Part shown: piece by piece, positions 10,303 to 59,612 of the stretch
Layout of the letters: each line of letters opens with the position of its first letter
Numbering within the stretch: position 1 is the first letter of the stretch
Origin: Cyanidioschyzon merolae
Lineage: Eukaryota
Direction: 5' to 3' (one strand)
Length of the DNA stretch: 64,000 bases
Assembly (NCBI GenBank): GCA_000091205.1
Contig: AP006485.2
Program-made: the position numbers and the translations under genes
The notes under the pieces: model-generated
Told to the model about the DNA's origin: nothing
Database searches by the model: none
The model's input: the letters and a program-made list of their open reading frames with translations, nothing else

Positions 10303-11613
10303 ACGTTTGGATCTCTTCGCACTGCCATCAATAATAGTCTTTGTGGGGTTTTTCTTGCGACTGCTTCTGCTCCCTCTTCCATACCCGACTTTGAACAAGA
10401 TGCTCAATGCTTTCCTGGGAGCTAACTTGTCAACAGGTGAAGGGTGTTTATGGCAGTGTGCAAATCCTGATTTTGCAGCTACAACCTGTTGTCGACGCAG
10501 TCAATACGTAAGTAAAAATTGCGATCGACGTAGCTGTTCCATTGTTGAGCTTGTTTGTACAAAGGCGCTGTGCGACCTTTCCATCAGTCATATCGTGTTA
10601 TGGTCAGGTGTGTCCCTCTATATCCACCTCATTTCCTCCGTGCGCCGCGCTGGGGCGTGGAAACGCTTGCTTCACGCCCCCGTACATGTCCATGACTGCT
10701 ACTGAAGGGTACGCTCCATGCACGCCTCCTTTTTTTTGCAGCGTCAACTGTACCCCACGATCACGGGGCTTGTGCGTGGCAATCCCCTCGGCAAGTACAC
10801 TATTCGATGCATACGAGAGTGCACGCAGTTCCGTTCGATAGCGGATTTGCGAAACGCAATGTTATTGACGATGGAACAATTACCAGAAACAAGATCCAAG
10901 CTGGAAAACGGGTCAAGAAATTTCGGTCTGTCTACGCTCCCTTCGTGCGAAACGGTGACGCACACCCTACTGGAATCGATCGCTCGGATGACTCCAGTTC
11001 TAGTACCGAATCCTTTCCCAAGCAAACAGAAGAGGCGGGAGCCCCGCAAGCAGCGCACCACATCATACGGTACCCTGCTGCTCTGGAATGCCGTCTCGCC
11101 GATGAGCGCGAAGAGACAAGAATTTGTCTTTCGAATGCAATGGACCATTCCAAGCGACAAGTGACGTGAGCAATGGTCATGAGTTTGTGAACGAGTCGTC
11201 CATGGACGACGTCAAGGTTCTGGTATCGCTGGATAATCTAGGGACACAAATCGCTTCGCCCCTAGGGTGCCGTGAGAGAGCAACACTGAAGCGTTGAAGA
11301 GTGCACGATTAACGCGTGCTTCACGTACGGAACTTTAAAGCGTGGGAGCTTGAACCAGTGACTCGGATCATTATATCGAATATTCTACGAATCTTTATTC
11401 GATTGCGTCGTGAATCCCCCCGATCCCTGTAACGTAACAATTTCCAGCGGTACAGCGTCAAAGGAGGCATTCCGCGAAAAAATGGCGACCGATCGACAGC
11501 AAACTACTCATGAATCTACACGCTCCTACCTGCTGCATTTCGCATGTCGAGACTGCGGAACTGCAAGTTCGGATAAATGGAAAAACAGGAACATAGAGAG
11601 CAGTAAAGCACTG
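10303..11613 (+). repeat. Dispersed repeat family A, copy A1 (longest copy, about 1.3 kb), unclassified
   Basis: Near-identical to 38001..39242 (inverted) and to 24964..25646 (direct). Paired spurious ORFs differ by only 2 of 120 residues (10807..11169 versus 38377..38739). Boundaries were set where flanks diverge (acgtttggatc... on the left, ...gcagtaaagcactg on the right). I recognised no protein family, TIR, or TG/CA termini. Confidence 0.8.
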
Positions 11614-13829: not shown

Positions 13830-15021
13830 TGCGGACTCCTACCATATCCATGACCTACTCTTAAGGGGAGTATCCAATCAATCGACGCTACCCCGGCGGA
13901 TGAATGTTTTCACGACAGGAGTTTTCACGGGTTTCAGCATGATTCGCAGACTAAGCACGAAATCATATTTTAGGAGTTTCGCTCTGTACAAAACTGCTGG
14001 TCGCTCCGCAAGCACGAAACATCTCCCGATATTCATAGAGACTCCGATATTTCGGTGCAGAACGTGCTCGCACCTGTGGCTGCCAGTGGCATCATTCCAA
14101 AGCGTGCCTGTCATTGTCGATTGCCCCGTTATCTGAGGTTCAGTCAGCATCCGCTGTACCATGATGTGCTTCGGTCTCTGCTTTTCGCGCGTCTGCTTCG
14201 CTGTCCGCTTCACCGGGCACCCTGACTCGTGGAGCGCGTACGTCGACCCAGACGCATCGCTGGGAATCGTGCCGCATCCATGTGCATCCACAGTTGTACG
14301 CTCTCGTGGATGGAGCAGGAGTGCAGCCTTGGCATGCTATAGCGCATCGATTGCTCTGTGGTATCACGAAACGACACGATACGAACGATCGAAGGTTTCC
14401 TTCCCCGTCGCATGAAAAGCGTTGGTGAATGCACGCTTGTCGCCTGGGTAGCACTGGAACCGGTGGCGACCCAGCGCTGTCTCATTGACTCTTGCCGGAG
14501 ATCGTCCGTACGCGCCATTTTGGACGTCTCGGGATGCTCTAGGTGAAGCATCCGAAGCACTGGTGTCGGCGCGAGACTGTACGCAGAGCGTCGAGCTGCA
14601 GGATGGGTGGCTAGGGGCTATGGCGCCTCTGCTGCATCTCCTGGTATGCCGCATGGCGTTTATGACGCTCGACTCTCGATGACGGTGCGCTCTGGGAAAC
14701 TCGAGCCGCTTCATCTGCTTTCACCCAGGATGCAAGGCTCTGTCCTTTTGATCAATACCTATGGCGACGGGCACGACACGCCCACACAAGTAGGCATCCA
14801 AAGTCTTTCTCCAGTACTACCTCGAAGGGTGGAACGTGATTCTCGAGTTTCGAGGTAGGCATAGGTTTCAAAAAGGGCATGCACAGGGATATGAGGTCGC
14901 TTTCGATTTTCGATGTAAGCATCTTTCCATTTCCTCCATGTACTCGATAAATCTTACACAAACTCCGCCGACGCTCTTCTGCCGAGCTGCTCGAATGCTT
15001 CGTAGTTGATCGCAGAGACCA
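13830..15021 (-). mobile_element. LTR-like repeat B, copy B1 (1192 bp), probable 3' LTR of a truncated Ty1/copia-like element
   Basis: Same length as, and near-identical to, 58421..59612 (3 differences in a 137-aa spurious ORF pair). In minus orientation it starts TGGTCTCTGCG and ends GGAGTCCGCA (TG...CA). A pol-like reading frame from the right flank runs about 24 codons into it (LVSAINYEAFEQLGRRASAEFV*). Confidence 0.6.
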
Positions 15022-23647: not shown

Positions 23648-24253
23648 GGGATACACGCTGAGTTTCGCACTCCGGTATACCTAAAATAAGATTGCCTTTT
23701 TGTAGTGGTTTGCTTTTCTTACAGGGTTACACGCTGAGTTTCGCACTCCGGTATACCTGCAATAAGATTGCCTTTTTGTAGTGGTTTGCTTTCCTTACAG
23801 GGATACACGCTGAGTTTCGCACTCCGGTATACCTGCAATAAGATTGCCTTTTTGTAGTGGTTTGCTTTCCTTACAGGGATACACGCTGAGTTTCGCACTC
23901 CGGTATACCTGCAATAAGATTGCCTTTTTGTAGTGGTTTGCTTTCCTTACAGGGATACACGCTGAGTTTCGCACTCCGGTATACCTACAATAAGATTGCC
24001 TTTTTGTAGTGGTTTGCTTTCCTTACAGGGATACACGCTGAGTTTCGCACTCCGGTATACCTGGAATAAGATTGCCTTTTTGTAGTGGTTTGCTTTCCTT
24101 ACAGGGATACACGCTGAGTTTCGCACTCCGGTATACCTGCCATAAGATTGCCTTTTTGTAATGGTTTGCTTTCCTTACAGGGATACACGCTGAGTTTCGC
24201 ACTCCGGTATACCTGGAATAAGATTGCCTTTTTGTACTGGTTTGCTTTCCTTA
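23648..24253. repeat. Tandem array, 8 copies of a 76-bp unit
   Basis: The unit gggatacacgctgagtttcgcactccggtatacctgcaataagattgcctttttgtagtggtttgctttccttaca starts at 23648, 23724, 23800, 23876, 23952, 24028, 24104 and 24180. The array begins 200 bp upstream of the Sec16-like ATG (23448, minus strand). Confidence 0.95.
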
Positions 24254-24963
24254 AAGTTGTTCAATGAAAATAGCGTATGATATGCATTCGGGAAAGGTCG
24301 GGAAAAGCGTTTTGTGACGGCAATGGTCGTGTGCGGAAAACGGTCGTACATAGGCAAGTCAGTTCCTACTTCTCCAGAAGGTGCATGAACCGCACTTGTC
24401 GATGTGCATCCATGATAGAACTTGTCGAAATCTATCAACACGAATACTCTTTTGATCACTCCAATTTAGTCCAAACGTTCCCCCAGAAATACGAGGAAAG
24501 AAGCTCCAGGATGTCAAGTGTTCATGCGGTTTAAAAGGTCGGTGCTGAAGCGACTCGGATGGACGGAACAAGAGATCGCTTTCCTTCCACCGTTGAATAT
24601 ACACAATCGATTTCGTAGTGAAACGCGAATACTTTTGACAGAAAGCACAGGTAATCGTCTGATTTGATGATTCTTAATTCGACATGAATTTAGAGACCTG
24701 TACATGGCTGCTCAAAGCGGCGTTAACCATATTTCAAAGGCAAGCAACGAGTGATCATGGTGACAACATGACCCTAAATGGTAATGCAGCCGCGCGGTCC
24801 ATGAAGTATCACGAAAAAAAGCACAGGATGATTTACCATCTTATCATTCGTCGAAGCGCACTTTGAGTCTTGTCCTTGTCATGTGTTATGCTCCTGCTCT
24901 TACAGAGCGCCACTTTTTATCTTACAGAAATGGTCGAGGAGTCCTCCTCTAGGATTGGCGTTT

Positions 24964-25646
24964 TCTACGCTCCCTTCGTGCGAAACGGTGACGCACACCC
25001 TACTGGAATCGATCGCTCGGATGACTCCAGTTCTAGTACCGAATCCTTTCCCAAGCAAACAGAAGAGGCGGGAGCCCCGCAAGCAGCGCACCACATCATA
25101 CGGTACCCTGCTGCTCTGGAATGCCGTCTCGCCGATGAGCGCGAAGAGACAAGCATTTGTCTTTCGAATGCAATGGACCATTCGAAGCGACAAGTGACGT
25201 GAGCAATGGTCATGAGTTTGTGAACGAGTCGTCCATGGACGACGTCAAGGTTCTGGTATTGCTGGATAATCTAGGGACACAAATCGCTTCGCCCCTAGGG
25301 TGCCGTGAGAGAGCAACACTGAAGCGTTGAAGAGTGCACGATTAACGCGTGCTTCACGTACGGAGCTTTAAAGCGTGGGAGCTTGAACCAGTGACTCGGA
25401 TCATTATATCGAATATTCTACGAATCTTTATTCGATTGCGTCGTGAATCCCCCCGATCCCTGTAACGTAACAAATTCCAGCGGTACAGCGTCAAAGGAGG
25501 CATTCCGCGAAAAAATGGCGACCGATCGACAGCAAACTACTCATGAATCTACACGCTCCTGCCTGCTGCATTTCGCATGTCGAGACTGCGGAACTGCAAG
25601 TTCGGATAAATGGAAAAACAGGAACATAGAAAGCAGTAAAGCACTG
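24964..25646 (+). repeat. Dispersed repeat family A, copy A2 (5'-truncated, 683 bp)
   Basis: Colinear with A1 positions 10931..11613. Both boundaries are sharp. It lies about 150 bp from the stop codon of the trefoil-repeat gene. Confidence 0.8.
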
Positions 25647-38000: not shown

Positions 38001-39242
38001 ATGCGAAATGCAGCAGGTAGGAGCGTGTAGATTCATGAGTAGTTTTCTGTCGATCGGTCGCCATTTTTTCGCGGAATGCCTCCTTTGACGCTGTACCGCT
38101 GGAATTTGTTACGTTACAGGGATCGAGGGGATTCACGACGCAATCGAATAAAGATTCGTAGAATATTCGATATAATGATCCGAGTCACTGGTTCAAGCTC
38201 CCACGCTTTAAAGTTCCGTACGTGAAGCACGCGTTAATCGTGCACTCTTCAACGCTTCAGTGTTGCTCTCTCACGGCACCCTAGGGGCGAAGCGATTCGT
38301 GTCGCTAGATTATCGAGCAATACCAGAACCCTGACGTCGTCCATGGACGACTCGTTCACAAACTCATGACCATTGCTCACGTCACTTGTCGCTTCGAATG
38401 GTCCATTGCATTCGAAAGACAAATGCTTGTCTCTTCGCGCTCATCGGCGAGACGGCATTCCAGAGCAGCAGGGTACCGTATGATGTGGTGCGCTGCTTGC
38501 GGGGCTCCCGCCTCTTCTGTTTGCTTGGGAAAGGATTCGGTACTAGAACTGGAGTCATCCGAGCGATCGATTCCAGTAGGGTGTGCGTCACCGTTTCGCA
38601 CGAAGGGAGCGTAGACAGACCGAAATTTCTTGACCCGTTTTCCAGCTTGGATCTTGTTTCTGGTAATTGTTCCATCGTCAATAACATTGCGTTTCGCAAA
38701 TCCGCTATCGAACGGAACTGCGTTCACTCTCGTATGCATCGAATAGTGTACTTGCCGAGGGGATTGCCACGCACAAGCCCCGTGATCGTGGGGTACAGTT
38801 GACGCTGCAAAAAAAAGGAGGCGTGCATGGAGCGTACCCTTCAGTAGCAGTCATGGACATGTACGGGGGCGTGAAGCAAGCGTTTCCACGCCCCAGCGCG
38901 GCGCACGGAGGAAATGAGGTGGATATAGAGGGACACACCTGACCATAACACGATATGACTGATGGAAAGGTCGCACAGCGCCTTTGTACAAACAAGCTCA
39001 ACAATGGAACAGCTACGTCGATCGCAATTTTTACTTACGTATTGACTGCGTCGACAACAGGTTGAAGCTGCAAAATCAGGATTTGCACACTGCCATAAAC
39101 ACCCTTCACCTGTTGACAAGTTAGCTCCCAGGAAAGCATTGAGCATCTTGTTCAAAGTCGGTATGGAAGAGGAAGCAGAAGCAGTCGCAAGAGAAACCCC
39201 ACCAAGACTATTATTGATGACAGTGCGAAGAGATCCAAACGT
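38001..39242 (-). repeat. Dispersed repeat family A, copy A3 (inverted relative to A1/A2)
   Basis: Its reverse complement is colinear with A1 10303..11545. Divergence points are sharp at both ends. It lies about 320 bp upstream of the RF2 ORF. Confidence 0.8.
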
Positions 39243-46750: not shown

Positions 46751-47875
46751 TCATGGATGAATAGTATCTTTGAATTCAAAGAACGAGTCATGCATGCGAA
46801 TGAAAGAGTACTCCTCGCATGACCCACAACACCAGTATAAATTAGGTTCTTTGTGAAAGATAGCGAACCCGGCGTGCATAAAACCTCGGAAAAACTCATC
46901 CAATTCTGGGATAGAGGCGAAACCCGCGTGCACTTCGATAAGGACTTGATTCACGTGCCGCAGCGCGTGCCAGGTTCTCAAGGCATATTGCTCTTCAGAG
47001 CTGAGTTCACGTTGGCTCCGTCCTTGGCGAAGGAGCTTGTCGGCTGCCCGGAACGCTCCCAAGAAAGAGGTGAACTCACCACCCTCGATATCGATCTTGA
47101 GCACCTCGACGACGTTTGGCAGCTCCAGGTGACCCAATCCAGACATGATCTCCGCCAGCGAATTGTTGCTCTCAGCCGGGCCAAGCGGCCGGCGAAAAAA
47201 ACGAACGCGTTCCAGAAAGCTCTCGGAGTGCATCGCAGATGGTGGCGATGATGTTGGGTCAAAGACGAAAAAATCGCAGTCCGGCAAGCGTTCATGAAGC
47301 TTCGTTTCGAAACTGAAATCGTCGTTGCTACCAAAACTGTAAACAATGCAGCGATACGGGAGCCTGAGCTGCTCACGAAACAGCCGTCCCCGGTTCAGGA
47401 TAGCAGGTGGGTCGCACACCCATTTGCCACCGTCTCCGTTGTTACCGATCCGTTCCTCTAAGGTACAGCCGATATCCGGTTCCCAGTTATTGTAGAAAAA
47501 AACCGACGGGTTTGGTTCGAGGGTAACGGTCTGGCGCTTTCGCTGACGTTGTGACCGAATCCTCCGTTGGGCCCAGAGCGCGTCCGACTCGCACCAGAAG
47601 CCGAGCGACTCTTTCAGTGCTCGCGTGTCCTTCGAAGTCACTGGTAGGGTCCGGTCCCAAATCTCCGTCAGGGTTTTCGCGTTGCGCAAAGAGCTCCCAC
47701 GACGAAGAGCCCTCGACACGGAGCGAACGCAGCTGTCATCCACGGCGGGAAGATCCGCGCGCTGGACACCACTAGAGCGTCCGTTGAGAACACTAGTAGC
47801 GCGGTATATTACGATAAGAGCATAAATAAGAAAAGTCAAAGCCCCTGAAGCGATGCACGGTTTTCGCCACGTCAT
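46751..47875 (-). CDS. Type II membrane protein with an FkbM/METTL24-like methyltransferase domain
   Basis: ORF 46751..48115. The likely start is ATG 47875 (MTWRKPCIASGALTFLIYALIVIY, a signal anchor), with alternative ATGs at 47989, 48028 and 48115. Domain motifs: CIVYSFGSNDDFSFETKLHERLPDCDFFVFDPT and VEVLKIDIEGGEFTSF. Confidence 0.55.
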   Translation of the reverse strand: MTWRKPCIASGALTFLIYALIVIYRATSVLNGRSSGVQRADLPAVDDSCVRSVSRALRRGSSLRNAKTLTEIWDRTLPVTSKDTRALKESLGFWCESDALWAQRRIRSQRQRKRQTVTLEPNPSVFFYNNWEPDIGCTLEERIGNNGDGGKWVCDPPAILNRGRLFREQLRLPYRCIVYSFGSNDDFSFETKLHERLPDCDFFVFDPTSSPPSAMHSESFLERVRFFRRPLGPAESNNSLAEIMSGLGHLELPNVVEVLKIDIEGGEFTSFLGAFRAADKLLRQGRSQRELSSEEQYALRTWHALRHVNQVLIEVHAGFASIPELDEFFRGFMHAGFAIFHKEPNLYWCCGSCEEYSFIRMHDSFFEFKDTIHP

Positions 47876-48024
47876 GCCGGCCACTGAAAACAAACGTCTT
47901 TCAAAAGAAAAACGTTGCCGCCAACGGTGTACAGTAGTGACGGGAAACGCGCCGTAAGCAAATCGTCTCCAGCTGAGGTGCAGACGCATCCCAGTCTTTT
48001 TCGACCGTCCACCTACTACGTCTT

Positions 48025-50149
48025 TCATTTTCTTCTCATATAATTCCACTTTGAGAGGTCGCCCCACAGGTTCTCTCGTGTCGAATCTGGAGGTCTTTTC
48101 TCCAGCACCGCACATCTCCTGATATTGATAGCGACATTAAAGTCTCGGTTCACAAACTCCATGCGTTTCTTGCCATCTTTGGTTGTACTTACTAATACAA
48201 GTAGCCCACGAACGTTCGCCCTCCTTTCCATTTGCTCCTCCGTCAGCGGTCCGTACTTTGCTATTTCGTCGGGGCTCCTCTGGCACTTTTCCATCTCGAT
48301 CCTTTGAAGTGTACAACACAGTTCATGGTGTGTATACGATGTTCGGAACTCATCTACAGGTATTGTAACTAACCGGTCTGCACACCCCTTGTACGTTCTT
48401 GTCGTTGGAGCTGGTGTACACTCTTTTTCAGACGCCTAGCGCCCTGCTCCGTATGCTACTACCAGCCTTTGACTTTCATCCTCTTTGAAGGCACTCAGCT
48501 GATTGAAAAAGTTCGCGAACGCACACTGCTTGCCAACGTATAGATTCATACGCAATCGAGACCACCGGGGCTTTGTATACTCTTTCCACAGTGCCTCCCA
48601 ATGACCAACGCGAACTTTCATGAACTCCCGAAAAGCTTGAAAGTCGGCTCCGCGGCTCGTCACCTCGCCCAAAGCTTCCAGGTGCTCTTTCATTCCTGCA
48701 TTCCATGTCTCGATTTCCTTCCACGCATTCTTTATACCGGATTCTCGATAGTATCTCGCTCTCGAGAACCTCAAAAGACGCATGTCTTTCTGAATGAAGT
48801 TGCCGTCTGGACCATCTTCCGCACGCCTGGGTACAGCGATGGCTGTGACATTCGTATTCCCAGGGTCCGCGCCCACGACAAAGTCGTTATACTTCCTTTT
48901 CTGTGTGGCACAATCCGCCTCCTTCTCATCTTCATACCTCGTCACGTCAACGACAACGTCGTCATCCTGCACTTCCTGTGTCGCAGGATCCGTCTCTTTG
49001 TTTTCTTCATGCTTCGTCATGGGCGAAGCCGAAGGCTCGATAGGACGATACGCCCTCAAGCGCTTGCAGTCTACACAAATGGATACTCCATCGGTTTCGA
49101 TCATCCCCGTGAATACCCTCTGCTTGCTAATTTTGAGACGTTTGAAACTGAAGATATTCTTCCAGTACGTCTCCCGGTTTTCACCGGAGAATTCCTCCCT
49201 GCTGGCATTGAACTCGGGACTGATCTACTTCATGATGCCGTAGACGACTCTGGAGCCGATATAAACAAAATGGGGCTGTATGTTCCATAACGGGATGACG
49301 TAGAAGCGCTTCACCATTAGGAAAGCCCTCGGTCTCTCGCGCTCTTCATTTTTTCCTCACTCAGCTTCATCTCCGTCTTGCGTTCGAGTTTTCGGTCCAG
49401 AAACACGAAATACCGCAGAATGAGGCGATAGTGTCTTTCCATATCTTTTTTCAACTCTGGTACCTTTTCTGCTGGATTCGCCAGCCCAAAAACTGCATGG
49501 TGCTCTTGTATTGCCGCACGGATTACAGAAGCTTCATTCGTGCTCCTGCGTGGCGCCTTCTTGTCACCAAATTCGACCTCATCTTCATGCTTACGATCAT
49601 TCGTGATGCCTTGAAAATCGCACATTTTCCATCGCGAGATAGACCCGGGTAGAGTGCAAACACGGCGCGTATCATGAAACGTTCGAGGTTCACTGTCAAA
49701 TGGTGTTTCAGGTCCGTGATTTACTTCATCGCCCCGTATATGTAGATATTTCCGTCACCGCTGTATCGATTACCCTCGAAGGGGAATTCCACGAAGATTT
49801 CGTGGAGAGCATGCACTAGCTCATTTTCCCTCCGCATACCCCCTGTACCAAGCATCAGTTGACGAATAAACGTCTTGTCGAAAAACTCGTCCGAAACCTC
49901 GACTCTTTCCATGTGCGTCACATCGCGATGCATCGCCCTCACCAAATGCATTAGCCCTGACGATGCGTTTATAATACTTTTGGAGTACGAATCGACACAT
50001 GGTCTCTGATAGCGTCTCGCAAATTTTGCTTGTACTGATCCTTGGTATGTCAAAGAAGACCAGCTTTCACCACCATCTCGTCGCACAGGTGTCTTTTTCG
50101 CCGCCTTCGACGTTGGACCTCCCCTTTCGGTCCTTTTTCTTCTCTTCAT
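48025..50149 (-). pseudogene. Fanzor/TnpB-like (OMEGA-family) RuvC nuclease gene, disrupted by 2 in-frame TAGs and 2 frame changes
   Basis: The fragments are 49721..50149, 49317..49625, 48436..49104 and 48025..48294. The last two share a frame across TAG 48436-48438. RuvC-I: [15 protein letters not shown] (Asp codon 48865-48867). RuvC-II: IPVDEFRTSYTHHELCC (Glu codon 48349-48351). Zn-ribbon remnant: ...EKCQRS.... RuvC-III: VNRDFNVAINIRRC (Asp codon 48142-48144). N-terminus: MKRRKRTERGGPTSKAAKKTPVRR, NLS-like. Confidence 0.7.
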
Positions 50150-51243
50150 TTTCTTCTGGACTCGGTACTGTTTTTTATTTTTTTCTGGCAGCCTGCGACA
50201 CTGGGCCTCCAGGATTATGTACTTGCTTTTTCATAACTTTGCTTTTTTAGTTTTTTTAAGAAGAAAGCCCTTTGAACGCTTCTGGTACACACTGCGAAAA
50301 AATTTGAGTAGACTTGTTTGAAGTTTGAAACACAAATGCAACCGAAAAACTGTACTTGGCTATGAACTCAACGAAAATACAACTTTTACATCAGAGCGAC
50401 ACGCTAGAGATCAAGATCACGTTTCCAGTCATCGTCGGCGATATGCGTCATGTCTCAAGCCTGTCTGATCTCCCAGCTGCGCTCGCTGTGCGCGATGCGT
50501 GCACCGCGCGAGACGCCTCACCGATCGATGAAGGACACGTGTCCGACACCCCGCCGTGGCACATGCGTGTTCGCATCGCACTGCAGCTGAAATAAAGTCT
50601 CGTAGATCGGAAACTCACGTGGAACGATCTCTTGCTATAGGCTATGTCGCTGATGCACATCGCAGTACGGACCTGACATACAAGGAGATGCAGGGGCCTG
50701 GCACGATTGCCCGCGATGCTTCTATCAAAGGCGTAGTCACTGTAGCACCTTACGCTTGTGCGAGTGAGGTATGCATCACCCTACTGAATAGGAGTTTCGT
50801 TCGTTTTATTGATCGTGAAAAAACTGTGTGCCGTAGTCTTCCCGACTACGGATATACGTTTATTCCCGTTTCTTGCAGTCCATTCCGCTCAGACGCTGGA
50901 ATGAGAAACTGGTTTGAATTGTGTTTCTATCCGGCGCCAGGCCAGCAAGTGTCGAGCAACCCACCGCAAATTCGTTCTGATCGATGGAATGTGCTTACGG
51001 CTCAATGATCCGAGAATTCACGACGAGTACCGACACCCGGGAAATCTGCCGCCATTGCGCACCAGCTCTGCGATTTCCACCAGTCACATCGCGTGCCTCA
51101 TCTCCGACATTCTGCTTTTCCGACGTTCCATTGTGCCCTGCGACTGCCGTGAGCGTTCGAAACAGCGCCCAAACCGCTGGATCGGGCGTAGCACAGAGAC
51201 CGACAGACATACCCCCTACTGGATTGGAGCCGGGAGCCATCGC

Positions 51244-58420: not shown

Positions 58421-59612
58421 TGCGGACTCCTACCATATCCATGACCTACTCTTAAGGGGAGTATCCAATCAATCGACGCTACCCCGGCGGATGAATGTTT
58501 TCACGACAGGAGTTTTCACGGGTTTCAGCATGATTCGCAGACTAAGCACGAAATCATATGTTAGGAGTTTCGCTCTGTACAAAACTGCTGGTCGCTCCGC
58601 ACGCACGAAACATCTCCAGATATTCATAGAGACTCCGATATTTCGGTGCAGAACGTGCTCGCACCTGTGGCTGCCAGTGGCATCATTCCAAAGCGTGCCT
58701 GTCATTGTCGATTGCCCCGTTATCTGAGGTTCAGTCAGCATCCGCTGTACCATGATGTGCTTCGGTCTCTGCTTCTCGCGCGTCTGCTTCGCTGTCCGCT
58801 TCACCGGGCACCCTGACTCGTGAAGCGCGTACGTCGACCCAGACGCATCGCTGGGAATCGTGCCGCATCCATGTGCATCCACAGTTGTACGCTCTCGTGG
58901 ATGGAGCAGGAGTGCAGCCTTGGCATGCTATAGCGCATCGATTGCTCTGTGGTATCACGAAACGACACGATACGAACGATCGAAGGTTTCCTTTCCCGTC
59001 GCATGAAAAGTGTTGGTGAATGCACGCTTGTCGCCTGGGTAGAACTGGAACCGGTGGCGACCCAGCGCTGTCTCATTGACTCTTGCCGGAGATCGTCCGT
59101 ATGCGCCATTTTGGACGTCTCGGGATGCTCTAGGTGAAGCATCCGAAGCACTGGTGTCGGCGCGAGACTGTACGCAGAGCGTCGAGCTGCAGGATGGGTG
59201 GCTAGGGGCTATGGCGCCTCTGCTGCATCTCCTGGTATGCCGCATGGCGTTTATGACGCTCGACTCTCGATGACGGTGCGCTCTGGGAAACTCGAGCCGC
59301 TTCATCTGCTTTCACCCAGGATGCAAGGCTCTGTCCTTTTGATCAATACCTATGGCGACGGGCACGACACGCCCACACAAGTAGGCATCCAAAGTCCTTC
59401 TCCAGTACTACCTCGAAGGGTGGAACGTGATTCTCGAGTTTCGATGTAGGCATAGGTTTCAAAAAGGGCATGCACAGGGATATGAGGTCGCTTTCGATTT
59501 TCGATGTAAGCATCTTTCCATTTCCTCCATGTACTCGATAAATCTTACACAAACTCCGCCGACGCTCTTCTGCCGAGTTGCTCGAATGCTTCGTAGTTGA
59601 TCGCAGAGACCA
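58421..59612 (-). mobile_element. LTR-like repeat B, copy B2 (1192 bp), probable 3' LTR of a 5'-truncated Ty1/copia-like element
   Basis: Near-identical to 13830..15021 and the same length, with TG...CA termini in minus orientation. The pol-like frame from 59613 upward (..LFDVIPMRNSKAHFIMKEKYVVHGFHRERR) continues into it as LVSAINYEAFEQLGRRASAEFV*. Confidence 0.6.

Follow-up and report, generated by a model that had tools for sequence, protein, structure and literature searches.

A Fanzor1-like pseudogene of Cyanidioschyzon merolae is very probably a long-dead copy of the CMe-1A repeat

A broken nuclease gene and its likely origin

We analyzed a 64,000-nucleotide stretch of the Cyanidioschyzon merolae genome (contig AP006485.2 of assembly GCA_000091205.1; hereafter the window), in which an initial annotation made from the sequence alone had picked out a broken gene for a Fanzor/TnpB-like RNA-guided nuclease at 48025-50149. 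We are confident that what lies here is one copy of CMe-1A that died long ago; this C. merolae repeat carries a Fanzor1 gene and has neither long terminal repeats nor terminal inverted repeats (TIRs). As such the finding is already known, with the copy being one of the ~150 decayed members of a repeat family that was catalogued in 2013 (PMC3627910). The initial observation is confirmed and its interpretation supported, and we correct it in three places, which are the N-terminus, the zinc ribbon and the list of lesions.

The initial annotation had joined four open reading frame (ORF) fragments on the minus strand, which the ORF list gives as 49721..50149, 49317..49625, 48436..49104 and 48025..48294. 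We find that they are indeed one unit. The three-frame translation and a tblastn search of the stitched protein against the window agree on this, and the search covered 50149..48028 in three frames. The peptide that reads through the TAG at 48436-48438 is present as it had been quoted, both of the in-frame TAGs that had been noticed are there, and the catalytic codons lie at exactly the positions given for them (Table 1). Searches of the window turned up no second copy of the element and no solo end. The region had also been described as A/T-rich, and it has a G+C content of 0.48-0.50 over 48001-51000 vs ~0.55 in the remaining window. The lowest G+C in the window, 0.448, is found at 24001-25000 and is below that of the element.

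Assignment to Fanzor1

We found 48 relatives of the window protein in a large protein collection, with 29-76% identity to it and a best E-value of 1e-291, so that the similarity is far beyond chance at the sequence level. NCBI annotation contributed none of the 48, which are all from assemblies of metagenomes or read archives. Among them are family members at 64-76% identity to the window protein. An exhaustive profile search reached 3729 clusters at 50% identity (E <= 1e-3). We built a profile from the 48 diverse family members and compared it with the sequences in the PDB, where it matched the Fanzor1 proteins of Parasitella parasitica (PpFz1, 7.7e-27), Spizellomyces punctatus (SpuFz1, 7e-20) and Guillardia theta (GtFz1, 6.2e-15). 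Only Fanzor1 was matched in this profile search, with no other PDB family below 0.1.

For a structure model we used the relative P0044, which is 39% identical to the window protein, and not the broken window copy. The AlphaFold2 model has a mean predicted local distance difference test score (pLDDT) of 88.9 and a predicted template modeling score (pTM) of 0.86. When it was compared with the PDB using Foldseek, the top 7 matches were all SpuFz1, PpFz1 or GtFz1 structures (E 2e-17 to 4e-15, TM-scores 0.55-0.73), and Cas12f came next at E ~1e-4. The predicted fold appears to have the WED-REC-RuvC-TNB arrangement of Fanzor1 and TnpB. Because the best profile and fold matches are all to Fanzor1, we assign the protein of the 48025-50149 unit to Fanzor1, as judged from sequence profiles and a modeled relative. 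The call of a Fanzor/TnpB-like nuclease pseudogene was therefore correct and can be narrowed to one family.

The window element resembles those of SpuFz1 (8GKH), PpFz1 (9CF0) and GtFz1 (9CER) in overall fold, by the TM-scores of the relative's model, and in the order of its motifs (RuvC-I DPG, the DE(F/Y)(R/K)TS glutamate and the NRD aspartate). Like them it is borne on a transposable element and has a conserved non-coding 3' end abutting the element terminus. It differs in that sequence identity is only 12-15%. Many of the relatives (P0001-P0047) carry a precomputed match to Pfam PF26935 (DUF8286), so that Pfam seems to list Fanzor1 relatives of the CMe-1A clade under this domain of unknown function.

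The element and its copies

A scan of JGI metagenome contigs gave at least 554 related loci, and their flanks are unrelated. We fetched 80 of them, and our per-copy counts cover 81 loci. Similarity between the window and the other loci begins at ~50480-50500 in most copies and at ~50930-50943 in a subgroup, and it ends at ~47881-47930 in all copies, with unrelated sequence on either side. This is a multicopy, mobile element. In all copies examined, the element carries no ORF other than that of Fanzor. Conservation among the copies is 0.907, 0.928 and 0.846 at codon positions 1, 2 and 3, which shows that the protein was under purifying selection while the family spread. The median longest open frame is 297 codons and only three loci exceed 750 codons, and the sampled family looks largely extinct.

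The 5' module of the window copy is ~450 bp long and common to five loci, whereas most other copies have a different one of ~690 bp, the commonest module. The leader, ORF and 3' end are common to the copies, but their 5' modules (~450 to 690 bp) are of at least four kinds with little or no relation to each other (L021:1700-2393, L031, L049, L058 and others). In the commonest of these a T-run comes first, then (N)ATGACAAAACGTTTACATTGACCA and a small subterminal hairpin. We compared the 5' end of this commonest subfamily with the 3' end, and their likeness (T-run plus TGAnAnnACGTTT) was not significant (p ~0.065). In one case (the 3' flank of L045 and the 5' end of L079) two copies lie head-to-tail, ~55 nt apart as estimated from the aligned sequence.

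Bao & Jurka (2013, Mobile DNA 4:12, PMC3627910) described CMe-1A in C. merolae as ~150 copies, each ~80% identical to a ~3-kb consensus, with no TIRs, with target-site duplications (TSDs) that could not be determined and with a 5' part common with another repeat. We infer that our locus is a member of this published family because its length, its copy properties, its lack of TIRs and our negative search for TSDs match their description. The two agree in species, in a length of ~3 kb, in copies that are ~80-85% identical to the consensus, in a 5' part that is shared or replaced and in having a Fanzor1 ORF, and we see no essential difference. The identification draws on species, length, copy properties and protein family, and not on the Repbase consensus. 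The initial annotation had predicted that an OMEGA-type element is or was active in this lineage; that the lineage holds such a family had already been published by Bao & Jurka, and rhodophytes are among the Fanzor hosts listed by Jiang et al. (PMC10530073).

Stops and frameshifts

We derived a majority consensus from 43 copies, with one 2-base gap repaired by hand, guided by the relative P0001. The consensus is an open ORF of 759 codons (MKKQVDDPGG...RRFV). Identity of the window copy to it is 84.6%, with differences of 13.5, 9.1 and 18.6% at codon positions 1, 2 and 3. Measured against this consensus, the window copy has five in-frame stops, five frameshifts and one lost stop codon (Table 1). 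The initial annotation had listed four lesions; the stops and frameshifts that it saw are real, but the count was too low, as there are 10 disabling lesions in addition to the lost stop. What it took for a frame change near 49700-49725 is a real disruption, but consists of an in-frame TAA and a 1-bp deletion further on, near 49611. Its second frame change, at 49320-49357, corresponds to the 1-bp deletion near 49354.

For three of the stops we made the comparison with relatives at the codon level, and one base separates each of them from a sense codon (TAC, GAG/GAA and TGG). Two contigs assembled independently from different samples (L069 and L070) match the window at 99% identity across the element and the flanks on both sides. 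They show ~21 mismatches to it within the element, and no lesion site is among these. Because both contigs carry all of the lesions, the lesions are genuine, and the window copy is dead and cannot make the protein, as the initial annotation had supposed.

The N-terminus needs a correction. The basic string MKRRKRTERGG... had been described as resembling a nuclear localization signal, but since the ancestral start is the ATG at 50232-50234, this string is an out-of-frame reading of a region that ancestrally encoded ...EENEEKKKD / RRRRRKRHLCDEMVVK. The true ancestral N-terminus, MKKQVDDPGGPVSPAARKKQKTVPSPEEKEEKKKQKGEALRRRRQERR, is also basic, and residues 1-23 of the P0044 model are disordered. 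A nuclear localization signal at the N-terminus is common (~60% of Fanzors) and not defining.

Catalytic residues and the missing zinc finger

The acidic residues that had been named as the RuvC triad align, in the profile of the relatives, to the RuvC motifs of PpFz1 and SpuFz1. Their order is kept in the window copy (Asp, then Glu just before the TNB domain, then Asp), the three columns are invariant in the relatives, and the family motifs DPG, DEfRT and NRDxNAAxN align to those of the solved Fanzor1 proteins. The catalytic Glu of Fanzor1 was placed just before the TNB by Xu et al. (PMC11423790), and the concept of a "rearranged" Fanzor glutamate comes from Jiang et al. 2023 (PMC10530073). 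We take the glutamate of DEFRTS to be this rearranged residue. The profile position "YGs" aligns to "VMGDW" of SpuFz1, and we take it to be the canonical TnpB RuvC-II site, where the CMe-1A family would have the Gly of VVAYGAGR.

Between DEfRT and NRD, a CxxC...CxxC pattern is absent from the window copy, from the consensus and from 44 of the 48 diverse clade members; only 4 distant members retain it. In most clade members RGLLWC.ST holds the one Cys that is kept, and in the Cyanidioschyzon subclade the motif reads RGLLALVSTT. The CCCC finger is present in SpuFz1 and in ISDra2 TnpB (PMC10432273), and a C4 zinc finger between the [TS][TS] and RD motifs is part of the Fanzor motif of Bao & Jurka (PMC3627910). 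The initial annotation was right that the second Cys pair is absent, but it had counted this as a sign of decay. Because the consensus and 44 of the 48 members also lack the cysteines, their absence is not decay of the window copy. We read it as a loss at the level of the clade, which would make the clade a zinc-finger-less variant inside Fanzor1.

The 3' end and a terminal hairpin

All copies conserve the last ~220 nt of the element, a stretch into which the end of the ancestral ORF extends. RNAalifold, applied to a MAFFT alignment of 32 of these 3' regions, gave only a 4-bp stem, and there was no Rfam match in 47500-51200. The terminal ~49 nt form a long hairpin in most copies despite differing arm sequences. 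The folding z-score of this hairpin is -3.5 for the window and has a median of -1.5 in the family (12 of the 32 copies below -2), vs a median of +0.5 in a control region (1 of 32 below -2). In an arm-swap comparison, 3' and 5' arms from the same copy folded at -18.3 kcal/mol and arms taken from other copies at -15.9 kcal/mol, and none of 5000 permutations was as low. The sense strand folds better than the antisense strand (-18.4 vs -12.7 kcal/mol, p = 3.5e-6), owing to the G.U pairs, which make up 21% of the total. The arms of the hairpin thus co-vary on the sense strand.

This pattern is as expected of a structure selected in a sense-strand RNA and would fit an omega-RNA scaffold. By analogy, the hairpin would sit where the last scaffold stem of a Fanzor1 or TnpB omega-RNA does, directly before the flank-derived guide. 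It may instead be a single-stranded DNA transposon end.

In our reconstruction, the ancestor would have been a ~3-kb unit that opened with a variable 5' module and the leader, followed by the 759-codon ORF. This would have encoded a putative omega-RNA-guided RuvC nuclease with a basic, disordered N-terminus, a triad of Asp / rearranged-Glu / Asp and a TNB domain from which the zinc finger had been lost. The conserved 3' region would have overlapped the end of the ORF and finished with the hairpin at the very last bases of the element. If the characterized Fanzor1 and TnpB systems are a guide (PMC10432273, PMC11423790), the omega-RNA would be transcribed from this region, its guide would come from the flanking DNA next to the element end, and the ribonucleoprotein would cut DNA that matches this flank next to a target-adjacent motif (TAM). 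For the window copy the guide would be the bases beyond 47881, into the start of the gene BAM79085.1. The nuclease activity and the mechanism of transposition are presumed on the same analogy. The copy, whether it inserted there or came to lie there later, ends 5 nt before the BAM79085.1 start codon, in the same orientation as the gene.

Table 1. Features of the CMe-1A-type element in the window, with the lesions given relative to the consensus of 43 copies.
Feature	Position	Strand	Basis or remark
Whole CMe-1A-type Fanzor1 element, ~3.06 kb	47881..50943	-	DNA homology to 81 unrelated loci bounded here
5' motif GGATAGAAACAC	begins 50932	-	evidence for the extent of the element
Element 3' arm	ends 47881	-	element 3' boundary
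Subfamily-specific 5' module, non-coding	50501..50943	-	common only to L005, L043, L047, L048, L054
5' leader, common to all copies	50235..50500	-	column conservation rises from ~0.55 to 0.8 at ~50480-50500
Remnant of ancestral Fanzor1 coding sequence	47954..50234	-	759 codons in consensus of 43 copies
Ancestral start ATG (MKKQVHNPGG...)	50232..50234	-	aligns to consensus start MKKQVDDPGG; not 50147-50149
In-frame TAA	50175..50177	-	vs consensus; absent from initial annotation
+2 frameshift, approximate	50131..50132	-	vs consensus; absent from initial annotation
In-frame TGA	50050..50052	-	vs consensus; absent from initial annotation
+2 frameshift, approximate	50001..50002	-	vs consensus; absent from initial annotation
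In-frame TAA	49721..49723	-	Tyr (TAC) in relatives
1-bp deletion, frameshift, approximate	49611	-	vs consensus
1-bp deletion, frameshift, approximate	49354	-	vs consensus
In-frame TAG	49225..49227	-	Glu (GAG/GAA) in relatives
RuvC-I Asp codon GAC (GADPGNTN)	48865..48867	-	aligns to DPG/DPN of PpFz1, SpuFz1
In-frame TAG	48436..48438	-	Trp (TGG) in relatives
Catalytic Glu codon GAG (PVDEFRTS)	48349..48351	-	aligns to IDEFRTS of PpFz1, LDEYKTS of SpuFz1
TNB/NUC region without CCCC zinc finger	48145..48348	-	no CxxC...CxxC, likewise in 44/48 clade members
RuvC-III Asp codon GAC (VNRDFNVA)	48142..48144	-	aligns to NRD of PpFz1, SpuFz1
1-bp deletion, C-terminal tail out of frame, approximate	48070	-	ancestral tail ...FVGQPLKVELYEKK... 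readable in other frame; absent from initial annotation
Loss of ancestral stop codon (now TAC), not in initial annotation	47954..47956	-	vs consensus
Conserved 3' region overlapping ORF end; candidate omega-RNA scaffold by analogy	47881..48100	-	kept in all copies
Terminal hairpin at exact element 3' end	47881..47929	-	folding z, arm-swap and strand tests

Flanking genes and other repeats

Three long ORFs in the window are exact matches to the C. merolae 10D proteins BAM79074, BAM79079 and BAM79081, encoded on a chromosome of 481,791 bp. The ORF directly downstream of the element, which starts at 47875, is BAM79085.1, a protein of 374 aa that UniRef labels as methyltransferase-domain-containing. 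It has a paralogue at >=90% identity, BAM82952.1, on another chromosome. Because the ancestral stop at 47954-56 is lost, the frame of the Fanzor tail enters BAM79085.1, which gives an ORF of 454 aa (46751..48115, minus strand) in which the two are fused. Some JGI metagenome gene calls report this ORF and NCBI does not.

One metagenome locus, L010, matches the window at 98-100% identity between 45031 and ~48500, a span that takes in the flank and the final ~600 bp of the element. Its identity then drops stepwise to 0.69-0.77 by 50469, and the sequence upstream is unrelated (L010:2347-7791 vs window 50469-45031). We had considered L010 as a uniformly diverged orthologue at 92% identity and rejected this, since the binned identity is that of a mosaic. 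It seems to be the window locus from a near-identical strain, changed by ectopic recombination or gene conversion that involved another copy. Because L010 is a mosaic, we have withdrawn the TAG at 48436-38 as the oldest lesion.

The window also contains other repeated sequence. A 69-bp sequence occurs twice (14654-14722 and 59245-59313), each time 78% identical to L001:4655-4722, and is another short dispersed repeat common to related genomes. Two stretches of ~200 bp in opposite orientation, at 10779-10979 (minus strand) and 38567-38767 (plus strand), are both ~67% identical to L001:17110-17310 and could be a repeat or a conserved gene fragment.

Alternative explanations

A number of our results weigh against a CMe-1A-type Fanzor1 element, and we list them together. 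The stitched window protein alone gave no meaningful match in a Pfam scan or in a phmmer search of the PDB, so family membership rests on the profile of the relatives. Of the 48 relatives, 12 reach the Pfam family Cas12f1-like_TNB. The C4 zinc finger, one of the defining features of Fanzor1, is missing, and the CMe-1A clade differs in this from structurally characterized Fanzor1 such as SpuFz1, whose TNB/NUC domain has a CCCC finger (PMC10432273). We found no TIR in the element, no transposase-like ORF in or beside it in the window ORF list, and no TSD, with a native longest common substring of 5.55 vs 5.53 when permuted. None of the 81 loci has a clean ORF from the consensus start to the consensus stop. 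In the 3' region, the consensus-derived structure outside the terminal hairpin has no covariation above shuffles, the minimum free energy of the consensus is no better than that of shuffles (z = -0.55), and conservation is no higher than at third codon positions. The proposed omega-RNA thus depends on analogy.

We considered that the gene might be intact and expressed, and that small introns, read-through of stop codons or programmed frameshifting would get around its apparent stops and frameshifts. Introns have been gained by Fanzor genes elsewhere (PMC10530073), and there is a GTAAGT-like string near 48195. However, the alignment with the relatives passes straight through every stop and the three stops checked by codon are single-base changes (TAC>TAA, GAG>TAG, TGG>TAG), so they are not introns. 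The frame changes are indels of 1-2 bp with no intervening sequence, ten lesions are spread across the whole ORF, and most other copies carry different and independent lesions, with a median longest open frame of 297 codons. We give this explanation almost no weight. The same goes for sequencing or assembly errors in an intact gene. Two of the indels are in short A runs (near 49354, and in a GAAAAA context near 50132), which speaks for errors, but L069 and L070, with differences elsewhere in the element and none at the lesions, make errors extremely improbable.

It is also very hard to believe that this is a prokaryotic TnpB of the IS200/IS605 or IS607 type, brought in by recent horizontal transfer or contamination. 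The RuvC core is common to Fanzor and TnpB, and Cas12f structures are among the distant fold matches. Elements such as ISDra2 share further properties with CMe-1A, namely the absence of a TSD and a gene whose 3' end overlaps a hairpin-terminated non-coding region reaching the right end of the element. Against this, genuine nuclear genes of C. merolae flank the element, Fanzor1 accounts for all of the best matches in sequence and in fold, with Cas12f 12 orders of magnitude behind, and the protein of ~760 aa has an N-terminal region that is long and REC-like, as well as an N-terminus that is basic and disordered. CMe-1A differs from IS200/IS605 TnpB in residing in a eukaryotic nucleus, in a protein about twice as long, in the rearranged RuvC-II glutamate and the lack of a zinc finger, and in lacking a TnpA (Y1) partner gene, of which the window ORF list has none in the element or close to it.

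A further idea is compatible with a dead CMe-1A copy and does not compete with it. The 3' part of the element may have been co-opted as the promoter or 5' untranslated region of BAM79085.1 and kept for that reason. Between the element end and the annotated ATG (47875) of this co-oriented gene there are 5 nt, and the junction and last ~600 bp are 98-100% identical in the strain whose 5' part was replaced. On the other hand, high identity near the gene may just mark where the recombination breakpoint lies, and we consider co-option unlikely. We keep to the explanation that the region is a dead copy of CMe-1A.

Significance

Fanzor biochemistry and structures were published in 2023-2024, and a single locus matters little by itself. 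That a Fanzor can be recognized by its RuvC motifs from a reading of the sequence alone is confirmed here. C. merolae grows at ~42-45 °C and pH 2, and there is modest practical value in a consensus from such a hot-acid-growing organism that is still an open ORF of 759 codons. We see two further modest leads for the family. One is the CMe-1A clade, which does without a zinc finger that was thought to be invariant, and the other is the hairpin in the last 49 nt, whose compensatory variation is a starting point for defining the omega-RNA.

We would go further only tentatively, and with more doubt than confidence. The CMe-1A clade (RGLLWC.ST; RGLLALVSTT in Cyanidioschyzon) may be a large Fanzor1 branch that lacks the zinc finger and keeps the triad, with a co-varying sense-strand 3' hairpin in the Cyanidioschyzon copies. 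Its consensus might then be resurrected as a zinc-independent, heat-tolerant, omega-RNA-guided nuclease, and its dead copies may be reshaping the chromosomes by ectopic recombination, as L010 would illustrate.

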